Below, in pieces: positions 14,001-18,169 of a DNA stretch of 64,000 nt. This DNA is from Patescibacteria group bacterium AH-259-L05 (GTDB lineage Bacteria > Patescibacteriota > Patescibacteriia > UBA2591 > UBA6264): NCBI GenBank assembly GCA_027717985.1, contig JALLOO010000001.1:80534-144533 (forward strand), written 5' to 3'. How positions within the stretch are numbered: position 1 is the stretch's first letter; each line of letters opens with the position of its first letter. Both the position numbers and the translations under genes were made by a program. The notes below the pieces were generated by a model, which was not told where the DNA came from, searched no databases, and was given only the letters and a program-made list of their open reading frames with translations.

Positions 14001-15012
14001 CGGTATTATTGCAGCTCAAAGTATTGGTGAACCAGGAACCCAGCTGACGCTGAGGACGTTTCATACAGGAGGTGTTGCGGGTAAAGATATTACACAAGGG
14101 CTTCCGCGTGTTGAAGAGCTGTTTGAAGTTAGGCCAGTAAAGCGGAAAGCAGTTATGGCAAAGCATAAGGGCACTGTTAAGATTATCTCATCAGATGATC
14201 AAAAAAGAGTTAGGATTACCTATCTGAGCAGACAAGAAGATACGTATACCATTGCGGGCAAAAAAGCCAAGCTTAACGTTAAGCAAGGGCAAAAATTAAA
14301 AAAGGGCGATAGTATTGCAATATTACCCTCCTTGTCATCCCGCGCCTCGCGCGGGAAGACAAAAGAAGTGTCATCTTCTGGGAAGAAAATCACGGCGCGG
14401 CATAGTGGAGAAGTTGCTATTGAAGATACGGTGGTTACGGTAACATATGAGGGGGAAAAACATGAAGAGTATGATGTGGCCGGATATACCATATGGGTTA
14501 AAGACAAAGATAAGGTAGAGAAGGGTCAGCAATTAACTGATGGAAGTTTGGATTTGCGTGAACTCTATACATTGCGCGGCAAAGAAGAGGTAGAAAAATA
14601 TATATTGCGGGAAATTCAATATATTTATTCATCTCAGGGGCAAAGATTAAATGATAAGCATGTTGAGCTCATTATTCGTCAAATATTTTCCCGCGTATTA
14701 GTAGTGGATTCTGGTGATACTGATCTTTTGCCCGGAGAGATTGTACCCAAAGCGTATGTAATTGAAGCAAATAAGATAGTTGAAAAAGAAGGTAAGAAAT
14801 CGGCCAAAGTAAAGGAGCTGCTCACTGGTATCACCCGGGTTTCACTCTCGACCGATAGCTGGCTTTCTGCTGCGAGTTTTCAAGAAACATCTCGTGTGTT
14901 AGTTAATGCGGCAATTAGCGGGCGGCCTGATTATTTACGCGGGTTAAAAGAAAATGTAATTGTGGGACAATTAATCCCTGCGGGAACCGGTTTGGAATCT
15001 AGAAAGGCCTAG
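11080..15012 (+). CDS. rpoC: DNA-directed RNA polymerase subunit beta-prime, with two repeat-derived in-frame insertions
   Basis: Zn finger [21 protein letters not shown], catalytic [12 protein letters not shown], and trigger-loop region [14 protein letters not shown]. Confidence 0.96.
   Translation: [1310 protein letters not shown]
12808..12894 (-). repeat. Family-B-related tandem duplication (42 + 45 nt) in frame in rpoC
   Basis: Two consecutive copies of GAGCGGAG(C/A)GA..CAAGGTTCTGCGAAGCA(T/C)GGTTCTTAT encode [14 protein letters not shown] / [15 protein letters not shown]. The core matches CAAGGTTCTGACGAAGTCAGGTTCTTAT at 58668-58696. Confidence 0.8.
14327..14365 (+). repeat. Family-A repeat (long-palindrome subtype) in frame in rpoC
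   Basis: CCCTCCTTGTCATCCCGCGCCTCGCGCGGGAAGACAAAAG. A 14-bp stem (TTGTCATCCCGCGC / GCGCGGGAAGACAA) with one mismatch. Encodes [13 protein letters not shown]. Confidence 0.85.
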
Positions 15013-15040
15013 ATTTTAGATTTAAGATTCTAGATTTATG

Positions 15041-15068
15041 AGTTTGCTTTACTATGCAAACTTTTTAT
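15041..15068 (+). terminator. Rho-independent terminator-like hairpin after rpoC
   Basis: AGTTTGC-TTTACTAT-GCAAACT followed by TTTTAT. The stem is AT-rich, so only moderate support. Confidence 0.45.
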
Positions 15069-15076
15069 GCTATAAT
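15068..15076 (+). promoter_or_regulatory. Extended -10 promoter element (TGcTATAAT) upstream of ftsK
   Basis: TG at 15068-15069 and TATAAT at 15071-15076. The -35 is weak (TTTACT). The family-A repeat at 15109-15182 would lie in the leader. Confidence 0.4.
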
Positions 15077-17390: not shown

Positions 17391-17405
17391 ATAAAAAATT
17401 ATTAC

Positions 17406-18149
17406 ATGTCGTTTACTTCAAAACAAGTGAGATCAGATACCTTAGGGCATGTGTTACAACAAACGCGCGAGGATAAGGGATTGAGTCTTAAAGATGTAGA
17501 ACAAAGTACGAGCATTGTTAAAAAATATTTAGAATATTTAGAAGCAGATGATTTTTATAAATTCCCCAGTACAACATATACGCGCGGGATTCTCAAACGT
17601 TATGCAGAGGCGTTAGAATTGGATGCGCGAAGTATTATAAATCAATGGGAACGAGAATATAGCGCTCCTTTGTCATCCCGTCCCCCCTTGTCATCCCGTT
17701 CCCCTTTGTCATCCCGTTCCCCTTTGTCATCCCGCGCGAAGCGCGGGAAGACAAAGGAAAAGTTGTCATCCCGCATCCCACTAAAGTGGGCTTCTCCTAA
17801 AAACGTTGTAGTACTGGCAATCCTTATCTTGATTTTATTATATATTGGTGTTAATATTAAAACAGCGATAGCACCACCATTAATTGAGATTATACATCCG
17901 CCAGATGAATTTATAGCTTCAAAGTCCAGCATTGTCGTACAAGGTACAACAAAACCTCATATAGAAGTATTTATAAACAATCAATTAATTGGCATCGCTG
18001 ATGCTTATGGGGGCTTTGAACAAGTCGTGGCCTTATTGCCTGGTTTAAATACCATTGAGATTTCAGCCAAGAAAAAATATTCGCGTATGCGAACCATATA
18101 CCGCCAGATCGTATTAGAAGCCCCCTCCCTTGTCATCCCGAGCGACTGA
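17406..18149 (+). CDS. RodZ-like HTH/transmembrane protein, with repeat-derived internal segment and repeat-derived C-terminus
   Basis: N-terminal XRE-type HTH ([38 protein letters not shown]), one TM ([16 protein letters not shown]) and a C-terminal beta-rich domain, as in RodZ. Confidence 0.6.
17665..17790 (+). repeat. Family-A repeat cluster (4 x 18-nt TTTGTCATCCCG units, a 17-bp-stem palindrome, one more unit) in frame in the rodZ-like gene
   Basis: Encodes [41 protein letters not shown]. The palindrome is CCTTTGTCATCCCGCGC-GAA-GCGCGGGAAGACAAAGG at 17721-17757, with a GCGAAGC centre. Confidence 0.9.
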
Positions 18150-18169
18150 AAGGAGCGAGGGACTGATTC
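18121..18169 (+). repeat. Family-A repeat spanning the rodZ-like stop codon and the recA leader
   Basis: CCCCCTCCCTTGTCATCCCGAGCGACTGAAAGGAGCGAGGGACTGATTC. It encodes the last 9 aa (APSLVIPSD) and the TGA stop (18147-18149) of the upstream gene. Confidence 0.9.

Follow-up and report, generated by a model that had tools for sequence, protein, structure and literature searches.

A short hairpin-forming repeat, marked by an unpaired TGTC tag, occurs at six loci in a 64-kb stretch of DNA (34.9% GC; hereafter the window) from AH-259-L05, a single-cell assembly (single amplified genome, SAG) of the Patescibacteria. The six loci lie within or beside alaS, rpoC, ftsK, a rodZ-like gene, recA and a wzz-like gene. 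The window was compared with a 39.5-kb contig of the sister genome AH-259-L07 (GCA_027718005.1, also a SAG), which is syntenic with it from a glycosyltransferase gene to past recA at a DNA identity of 85-96%. Copies of the repeat are gained and lost on a short timescale, between genomes that are 85-96% identical. The six loci probably represent a non-autonomous hairpin-forming repeat of the repetitive extragenic palindrome (REP) type, a local branch of the TGTC/CGTC-tagged superfamily, which may spread by the route proposed below. The original prediction, made from the sequence of the window, had named the same six loci and likened the repeat to Rickettsia palindromic elements (RPEs).

Six loci and their reading frames

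The motif TTGTCATYCCG, counted with at most one mismatch, was found 23 times in the window, compared with a mean of 1.37 and a maximum of 5 in 100 dinucleotide-preserving shuffles. All 23 matches fall within the six predicted loci, between 3.6 and 23.8 kb, and the tagged strand is the + strand every time. A regular-expression scan of the window for GTC-AT-stem patterns gave no excess over chance beyond these loci (15 found, 13 expected), and a covariance model of the hairpin, run with filters off on both strands of the 64 kb, returned no further copies. The two subtypes that had been distinguished were recovered as described: type A, with tandem G.A mismatches, and type B, a near-perfect long palindrome. 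The repeat segments were also said to be far richer in GC than the neighbouring genes, and we measured 57-64% GC in the segments versus 30-41% in their flanks. The loci, together with a 16-mer that accompanies two of them, are as follows.

3621-3963, + strand: in-frame insert in alaS, about 13 tandem 24-nt left-arm half units (TTGTCATCCCGAGCGA + CCCCTCCT)
14322-14378, + strand: in-frame insert in rpoC, with the type-B 'double-foot' palindrome TTGTCATCCCGCGC-CTC-GCGCGGGAAGACAA at 14331-14364
15109-15182, + strand: rpoC-ftsK spacer (ftsK leader), with a C-rich tract, a half unit TTGTCATTCCGAGCGA at 15116-15131 and a full type-A hairpin at 15143-15182
15196-15211, + strand: 16-mer TATTGATTTTTATGGC, containing the ftsK ATG (15207) and identical to 18179-18194
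17665-17790, + strand: in-frame insert in the rodZ-like gene, about 4 tandem 18-nt half units, a type-B palindrome, the tail GGAAAAG and another left arm
18121-18169, + strand: 3' end of the rodZ-like gene and recA leader, with a type-A hairpin at 18130-18165 preceded by a C-rich 5' tract
18179-18194, + strand: 16-mer TATTGATTTTTATGGC, containing the recA ATG (18190)
23782-23819, + strand: diverged copy in the wzz-like gene, TTGTC-ATTGC-GA-GGCGCC-GTA-GGCGCC-GAA-GCAAT-CTC

In alaS (open reading frame (ORF) 2823-4985; Pfam tRNA-synt_2c and tRNA_SAD), Tandem Repeats Finder resolved the array (3636-3944) as 12.9 copies, 97% identical, of a 24-nt unit, a copy number that is insecure in that a sequencing read is likely shorter than these 309 nt of near-identical units. 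The array closes with one complete type-A hairpin (3927-3963), which scored 60 bits in the covariance model, though it is itself a training sequence. The insert is translated as (PPLSSRAT)n-EGSEGSQ and breaks the tRNA-synt_2c match after residue 266. In rpoC (ORF 11080-15012) the tail AAGAAG and another TGTCATC come after the type-B palindrome, and the near-perfect palindrome at 14327-14365 has a minimum free energy of -22.1 kcal/mol as RNA (z -5.3). The rodZ-like ORF (17406-18149; Pfam HTH_25) holds 3.8 copies of an 18-nt unit by Tandem Repeats Finder, followed by a type-B palindrome at 17721-17757, TTTGTCATCCCGCGC-GAA-GCGCGGGAAGACAAA (z -6.9), and its insert encodes PLSSR(P/S) repeats.

The remaining copies lie at gene ends, in leaders or antisense to a gene. 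The copy at 18121-18169 supplies the last seven codons of the rodZ-like gene and its TGA stop (18147-18149), and the recA ATG follows 21 nt downstream. This copy scored 43.4 bits (E 1e-9) and the ftsK-leader copy 52.8 bits (E 3e-12) in the covariance model, both outside its training set. The 16-mer TATTGATTTTTATGGC occurs exactly twice in the window, each time 13-14 nt 3' of a leader hairpin. The ftsK and recA starts of the sister differ from the ATGs that the 16-mer bears in the window, and the repeat may carry or rewrite translation start regions. The diverged copy (z -3.3; 17.7 bits, E 0.012) is antisense to the wzz-like ORF (22884-23858, - strand) and covers codons 14-26 near the N-terminus; it may be part of the coding sequence or, should translation begin further downstream, part of the leader.

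Of the six frames that the half unit offers, five are free of stop codons, as had been reported for the unit. The internal coding copies have lengths that are multiples of three and no stop codon, and the host ORF stays intact. The copies in alaS, rpoC and the interior of the rodZ-like gene had been said to share one frame, L-S-S-R; exact left arms at these three places are indeed all in the same codon phase (17/17), and the copy at the rodZ 3' end reads in another (VIPSD*). Counting independent internal sense insertions, all four (window alaS, window rpoC, the rodZ site shared with the sister, and sister rpoC) use the (L/V)SSR phase, which among the three open sense frames is the most hydrophilic. 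The shared frame stands as an observation, and its significance over four insertions is only marginal (p ~0.04).

Hairpin structure and distribution across phyla

From its 5' side, the unit consists of a pyrimidine-rich tract, the unpaired tag (T)TGTC, an A-T and a T-A pair, and three variable pairs. The inner part continues with G.A/A.G, the pairs G-C and C-G, a second G.A/A.G and a variable apical stem-loop with a GAA-type loop, and the right arm is the mirror image of the left, ending in a tail C(C/T)N. The minimal form has nine stem positions (seven paired, two tandem G.A) and a 3-nt GAA loop; window type-A copies add an apical stem with a loop of 3-4 nt, and type-B copies have 8-9 Watson-Crick pairs and a 3-nt loop. 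In the type-B 'double-foot' form the tag also pairs with a downstream GACAA, with A.A at stem position 1.

The covariance model was trained on a 37-sequence alignment (A6) of the extended form, comprising metagenome copies, the copy in the secY-adk spacer of the sister and the window alaS copy. TGTC is invariant in this alignment and stands directly before the stem in every window copy, unpaired in type A. The two outer pairs are A-U and U-A in 37/37 aligned sequences and likewise in the window type-A and wzz copies. Tails in the window read CCC(A), CTC(A) or CTG(A), and those in the alignment begin with C, followed mostly by C or T and then by C or G.

Pairing of the arms is borne out by covariation. 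In the alignment 98.5% of cells are paired, compared with 88.8% in shuffles and 8-54% in slid registers; double changes occur at 4/9 pairs, and the covariation score was reached by none of 500 shuffles. When IMG/VR was scanned with the pattern TGTCATNNNGAGCGAAGCGANNNAT, in which three stem positions are unconstrained, 98 distinct copies were recovered, of which 88 are perfectly complementary and three more pair with wobble, where chance would give 1/64. The 88 complementary viral copies span nine different complementary triplets. A Y/R stem pair is matched in 45/47 distinct genome copies among the matches listed. Between sister and window, the same apex GAGCGACTGAAAGGAGCGA is borne on the stems ATCCC/GGGAT and ATTGC/GCAAT, the latter at sister position L052 12626, which constitutes a set of compensatory changes. 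G-U pairs are tolerated on the tagged strand. The model also finds the ftsK-leader, recA-leader and wzz copies on which it was not trained.

A repeat particular to the source genome had been proposed, and this view gives way to that of a local branch of a family spread over many bacterial phyla. The 16-mer TTGTCATYCCGAGCGA was found in 49 viral contigs and at no fewer than (at least) 120 loci of species-representative genomes, and among the matches listed a hairpin closing with GAGGRAT follows 103 of 129. The carriers include many Acidobacteriota/Terriglobales, Verrucomicrobiota, Planctomycetota, Chloroflexota, Nitrospirales, Omnitrophota and Gemmatimonadaceae; Bacteroidota, with the isolates Hymenobacter lutimineralis and Pontibacter populi; and Burkholderiales, Lysobacterales, Devosia, Cyanobacteria, Armatimonadota, other Patescibacteria and a Bifidobacterium. 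Nearly the same 25-nt sequence is present in more than 12 phyla and in viral contigs. Among the matches listed, carrier loci range from 35 to 73% GC, and the extended type-A form is abundant in metagenomes, on contigs of 39% to ~70% GC.

The arrangement of copies in distant genomes recalls that in the window. Half units stand just upstream of a full unit and have the same stem triplet as that unit, and the spacer or 5' flank is pyrimidine-rich. Among the matches listed, of 257 core copies at 120 genome loci, 102 have a partner with the tags outside, 18 have one with the tags inside, and 36 have direct neighbours. In Bifidobacterium pluvialisilvae (L078 5889-6006), a 3.9-copy array of 30-nt left arms (TTGTCATCCTGAGCGAGC + ACAACACCCACC) closely precedes a truB-like gene and offers, in the Actinobacteria, a parallel to the array in alaS. 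None of eight usable copies in low-GC public contigs lies inside a long ORF, a sample too small to inform. A search with the RodZ repeat peptide of 1.84 billion protein representatives, at a peptide length below the reach of HMMER, returned one irrelevant repeat protein.

Conservation of this kind could reflect a function in RNA, with the hairpins being selected cis-acting elements that stabilise 3' ends, terminate transcription, or serve as sites of processing or protein binding; a conserved RNA-binding factor of the host would recognise their conserved tag, G.A loops and pyrimidine tract. Such an explanation would account for the strong conservation of unpaired and non-canonical positions across phyla alongside stem covariation, and it agrees with the tagged strand being sense at 5/6 window loci and with intergenic copies that are flanked by co-directional genes and adjoin the 3' end of the first of the two. 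The tolerance of G-U pairs also fits, as do the many Acidobacteriota copies that are followed by CTGCTTTT. Di Nocera et al. cite the location of repeats of this kind, and their G-T pairs, in arguing that they are transcribed (PMC3733652). However, copies occur in the middle of ORFs of essential genes, where termination or cleavage would be harmful, and presence or absence differs at the same genes of near-identical genomes. Thirteen left arms with one right arm have no obvious RNA logic. The window copies lack a U-tract: no T-run follows the hairpins, and none was called as an intrinsic terminator in a scan of 14-19.5 kb. The repeat also belongs to no Rfam family; in gathering mode only a tRNA passed in the window, and in E-value mode the repeats drew only noise matches to microRNA models. 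We consider an RNA element as the primary explanation unlikely, and it would in any case be compatible with mobility.

Gain and loss of copies and the proposed route of spread

The window and sister differ in their copies at rpoC, alaS, rodZ and two gene leaders. AlaRS (alanyl-tRNA synthetase) is 720 residues long in the window and 609 in the sister, and the two proteins are 90-92% identical. In a 13-sequence alignment, a block of 111 residues is present only in the window protein and is missing from the sister and 11 other orthologues, at a linker that varies in length among orthologues too; the sister alaS DNA is a clean empty site. In RpoC, neither the sister, which is 90% identical across the C-terminal 410 residues, nor any of eight other orthologues has the window repeat peptide. 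The polymorphism in rpoC is reciprocal: the sister carries an in-frame PEVSSRASEGS where the window is empty, and two window inserts are missing in the sister, in protein flanks that are 96% identical between the two.

The sister has no such copy at the rodZ/recA junction, and its RodZ ends LEE*. At the internal rodZ site, the flanks CCTTGTCAT and TTGTCATCCCGCA are common to both genomes and the filling is wholly different, with two more half units and a type-B palindrome in the window and ATTGC-type hairpins in the sister; more distant RodZ orthologues lack the internal segment (12-orthologue alignment). The sister carries a different element at the position of the ftsK-leader copy. Further copies exist beyond the six loci, as the original prediction had anticipated, both in the public genomes, metagenomes and viral contigs described above and in the sister contig, where there are five more elsewhere, including a cluster in the secY-adk spacer, one at L052 position 12626 and the in-frame rpoC copy. 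The covariance model picks out the sister rpoC, rodZ and L052-12626 copies. An identical 31-nt stretch, GTCATCCCGAGCGACTGAAAGGAGCGAGGGA, is found at the window recA leader and in the sister secY-adk spacer, and this exact lineage-specific sequence had no matches in the metagenome scan. The polymorphism between the two genomes is reciprocal and recent.

Since the inserts are missing from both the sister and distant orthologues, they are recent insertions and not conserved domains. The peptides might instead have been low-complexity linkers or domains conserved by selection on the protein, with the palindromy of the DNA incidental, and the in-frame copies do give hydrophilic Pro/Ser/Arg peptides in one frame. 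That explanation is contradicted by the orthologues examined for alaS, rpoC and rodZ, all of which lack the segments, including proteins 90-96% identical; the same DNA is moreover found in non-coding leaders and in antisense, and the covariation tracks base pairing and not codons. We regard it as extremely improbable.

It is also highly improbable that single-cell amplification or short-read assembly produced the inserts as artefacts, or that they are intervening sequences skipped at the level of RNA or translation. GC-rich 'byp' elements of yeast mitochondria are intervening sequences that are skipped in this way, and the window repeats share with an artefact or bypass scenario a SAG source, an alaS array probably longer than a read, and GC-rich islands set in AT-rich genes. 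Against this, the family is carried by independent assemblies (the sister SAG, the Hymenobacter and Pontibacter isolates, metagenomes and viral contigs), and the internal coding copies are in frame and stop-free, so that no bypass is needed.

How the copies arose can be approached from the filled and empty sites. The block that is copied is longer than the hairpin, because copies share 3' tails: the two leader copies share the 16-mer TATTGATTTTTATGGC, and the two type-B copies share a tail GACAAA-GRAAR-(G)T-TGTCATC. No target-site duplication was found at the three filled/empty comparisons (alaS, rpoC and the recA leader). Local amplification of left arms gives tandem periods of 18 and 24 nt. 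These features could also be produced with no transposition at all, by local slippage, hairpin-primed repair or gene conversion among TTGTCAT tracts, with the similarity between loci due to ectopic recombination. Half units that always share the stem triplet of the neighbouring full unit, arrays that are near-perfect tandem repeats, the lack of target-site duplications, the identical 16-mer tail of two leaders, and the rodZ site, where TTGTCAT flanks are shared and the fillings differ between genomes, are all in keeping with such turnover. However, the empty sites of the sister at alaS, rpoC and the recA leader contain neither TTGTCAT nor a palindrome seed, the same 31-nt stretch is present at unrelated loci of two genomes, and the occurrence of nearly the same 25-nt sequence in more than 12 phyla and in viral contigs is beyond local processes alone. 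As a full account, local turnover is very unlikely.

In the route that we propose, the tagged strand would fold as single-stranded DNA at the replication fork and would be cut and pasted, or copied, in trans by an HUH/Y1 or other enzyme that is encoded elsewhere or is phage-borne; template switching would be an alternative. Replication slippage between direct TTGTCATCCCG repeats would then enlarge the arrays. Sheared G.A pairs in a C-GA-G context, and DNA mini-hairpins with a GCGAAGC apex, are unusually stable, and IS200/IS605-type elements use the lagging-strand template. Positive GC skew and gene orientation suggest that the tagged strand in 1-20 kb is the lagging-strand template, an assignment confounded with the direction of transcription. 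Cumulative GC skew in the window peaks at 18-20 kb, and gene orientation changes from + to - at ~19.2 kb; the skew peak and strand switch would fit a replication terminus, or simply a switch in gene strand.

Within genes, the surviving copies would be those that are in frame, free of stop codons and in permissive regions. Candidate permissive sites are the linker that joins the catalytic and tRNA-recognition domains of AlaRS, an insertion in beta' that is lineage-specific, the RodZ linker between the HTH (helix-turn-helix) domain and the membrane helix, and a C-terminus. B. subtilis beta' (6wvj_D) has no equivalent of the segment that holds the RpoC insert, and the AlaRS insert is modelled as coil at a predicted local distance difference test score (pLDDT) of ~30, in a poor AlphaFold model (mean pLDDT 59.6, 13-sequence alignment). 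In-frame copies would be translated as harmless Pro/Ser/Arg-rich peptides, probably disordered. Intergenic copies may secondarily serve as mRNA 3'-end or leader structures, a role that may coexist with mobility.

As had been claimed, no transposase is visible in the window: the 50 window ORFs scanned (non-nested, at least 100 aa; the last ORF, 63038-63856, left out) include no gene for a transposase, integrase, reverse transcriptase or HUH enzyme. The called genes of the sister contig likewise gave no transposase or HUH family, for ~100 kb covered in the two genomes together. A wider reading would take the hairpin, with its TGTC tag, A-T/T-A foot, tandem sheared G.A pairs in a C-GA-G context and GCGAAGC-type apex as constant features, to be common almost unchanged to more than 12 phyla and phage contigs, to be moving today in small Patescibacteria genomes, and to be mobilised by a conserved host replication or repair activity or by a phage-borne single-stranded DNA enzyme with no dedicated transposase, its in-frame inserts and half-unit expansions being a general source of lineage-specific core-protein insertions in the Candidate Phyla Radiation (CPR). 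We put this forward as a possibility, and a doubtful one.

The window and its sister form a natural experiment on how transposase-less tagged hairpins spread, a question that goes back to the description of the CGTC class in 2013, with reciprocal copies in rpoC, alaS, rodZ and two leaders, empty sites at hand, and shared tails that show the extent of what moved. An essential aminoacyl-tRNA synthetase can gain more than 100 residues from the family, which bears on the origin of odd protein insertions in the CPR. Inserts of this kind inflate the 'novel' low-complexity regions of proteomes from SAGs and metagenome-assembled genomes, and can break assemblies and phylogeny alignments, including those of rpoC and alaS.

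Known repeat classes and other inserts nearby

According to Di Nocera, De Gregorio & Rocco (2013, BMC Genomics 14:522; PMC3733652), the palindrome of members of the 'CGTC-tagged' REP superfamily is tagged at one end by four unpaired nucleotides, CGTC or the variants TGTC and CCTC, and has a stem of 8-9 bp that almost invariably opens with complementary A-T at positions 1-2, a loop of 4-5 nt and, at the untagged end, a 3-nt unpaired tail with the consensus CCA. Their dimers are predominantly HH (tag-outside), rarely TT and negligibly HT. The authors also report copies within ORFs, including tRNA synthetase genes, and no associated transposase gene; the repeats are reported never to flank Y1 transposase genes, and the superfamily is reported from five phyla. 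Neisseria dRS3 (CGTC-1) and the Rickettsia conorii elements RPE-4 (CGTC-4) and RPE-6 (CGTC-1) are among its members.

Set against this description, the window repeat resembles the superfamily in its TGTC tag, A-T foot, intragenic copies, lack of a transposase and HH dimers across genomes, and comes near it in having about nine stem positions and a short tail beginning with C. Unlike the superfamily as there described, it has two conserved tandem G.A loops, with a 3-nt loop (GAA or CTC) or an extended apical stem, and the window holds no HH dimers but co-oriented, head-to-tail arrays of left-arm half units. Its range is far wider than the five phyla of that description, also taking in Patescibacteria and viral contigs.

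The RPE-like behaviour claimed in the original prediction is supported in that palindromic repeats lie in frame in essential genes of a small AT-rich genome and are missing from orthologues. Classical RPE-1 elements are 100-150 bp long. The window repeat differs from RPEs in having a host of another phylum and units of 30-55 nt, and it is likened to them by description and not by sequence. To our knowledge, long tandem arrays of half units (111 aa in AlaRS) are not a feature of RPEs. RPEs are translated as extra surface peptides, and the placing of RPE-4 and RPE-6 in the CGTC superfamily (PMC3733652) makes the likeness closer than the original prediction had it.

The window type-B copies (TGTC-ATCCCGCGC...GCGCGGGA) resemble the core of dRS3. 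This core is ATTCCC-N8-GGGAAT preceded by CGTC, and dRS3/NIME repeats are clustered in intergenic mosaics and used as phage integration sites. Type-B copies also resemble the 'double-foot' REPs of RAYT subclass 2.4, a form that an inverted dimer can yield when its centre is deleted (PMC6006769). The short tagged hairpins, inverted dimers, 'double-foot' forms and occasional in-frame intragenic copies are all shared with GTAG REPs and REPINs, for which in-frame insertions have also been described (PMC6006769). Their single-stranded-DNA mechanism offers a plausible analogue for the window repeat. Unlike these RAYT-associated (HUH Y1) repeats, the family has the tag TGTC and not GT[AG]G, and no RAYT gene was found in the window ORFs scanned. 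It is like miniature inverted-repeat transposable elements (MITEs) and IS200/IS605-derived elements in being small, non-autonomous, structured and dispersed, and shares with IS200/IS605 the lack of target-site duplication. It is unlike MITEs in having no terminal inverted repeats from a known insertion sequence (IS), no target duplication and no known parent IS, and in being much smaller (~30-55 nt).

A full-text search of a literature library found no paper with the sequence strings of the repeat, nor any on palindromic in-frame repeats in the CPR, and a 2025 survey tool paper does not mention Patescibacteria (PMC12306157). In-frame insertion of the REP/RPE type is already established; the repeat is a further example, a local subfamily that extends the range to Patescibacteria.

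Several points weigh against a mobile branch of the tagged superfamily. The published class has loops of 4-5 nt and stems of 8-9 bp, from which the repeat departs in its G.A mismatches and in loops of 3 nt or 7 nt. The fit to the CGTC/TGTC superfamily is one of described features. The folding energies of type-A copies are unexceptional (z -0.6 to -1.6 as RNA, ~0 to -2 as DNA), and the type-A structure therefore rests on covariation. The mobilisation step is only inferred, and ORFs within 1.5 kb of the repeat at 246 loci gave, as recurrent neighbours, only phage structural proteins from related viral contigs. The copies in 1-20 kb are co-oriented with transcription, which makes an RNA role and a replication-strand bias inseparable, and the length of the alaS array may be mis-assembled in a single-cell assembly.

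The repeat is accompanied by other inserts, and most indels between window and sister are small palindromic elements. A second, different family is present in window rpoC (12805-12892, + strand) as an 88-nt in-frame insert of two 45-nt units, GGTTCT...GACGAGCGGAG...GAGGAAC...GGTTCTTAT; the insert is missing from sister RpoC, with flanks 96% identical, and a relative, GGTTCTGACGAGCGAAGTCGCGC-TTA-GCGCGACGAAGTGAGGAATGGTTCTTAT, lies in the sister rpoC-ftsK spacer. A hammerhead-like reading of this family (CTGACGAG...CGAAG) was rejected, there being no stem I/III context and no Rfam match. Three more small palindromic inserts are present in the sister and missing in the window, in the spacers mur ligase-rpoB (L050 20425-20615), rpoB-rpoC (L052) and ftsK-rodZ (L052). 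One of these is ~150 nt long with several hairpins, one is 106 nt long and bounded by CCCCCCACTTTCTAAAA and its inverted repeat, and the third is an AT-rich inverted repeat, AATCCTAAA...TTTAGGATT.

The AlaRS orthologues P0003, P0004, P0005, P0108, P0011, P0103 and P0039 have short lineage-specific inserts of their own at other positions (for example GLPAVASARA, NQKSKIKNY, NSSTSSEPP and, in P0039, a 30-residue block), which suggests, from sequence comparison, that repeat-derived inserts may be common in core proteins of Patescibacteria. In RpoC, residues ~1073-1138 of the window protein (nt ~14296-14493) comprise, the repeat apart, ~65 extra residues that separate the two stretches aligning to B. 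subtilis beta' (6wvj_D). This segment resembles a barrel-type motif of the jaw region that has been duplicated, and it is common to partial orthologues of other Patescibacteria.

On a larger scale, the sister carries a 5.9-kb insertion (L050 13338-18998, corresponding to window 6207-6299) between scpB/tRNA and the Mur ligase gene, with genes for DUF5678, an aspartic-protease-like protein, and PPDK_N and PEP-utilising domains. In the window, a 40-kb block of polysaccharide/glycan biosynthesis genes (24455-63856, - strand) holds no copies of the repeat. It includes genes for epimerases, DegT aminotransferases, glycosyltransferases, sulfatases, Wzy-like and flippase-like proteins, asparagine synthase and HisF/HisH-like proteins; its GC content falls to 27-29% at 58-64 kb, and the ORFs 43718-44572 and 47168-48304 have no Pfam match. 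Beside recA lie a HEPN-type nucleotidyltransferase substrate-binding gene (19262-19633, - strand) and an AAA_14/DUF4143 ATPase gene (20122-21501, - strand), and at the same recA-side place the sister has a HEPN and nucleotidyltransferase pair instead.

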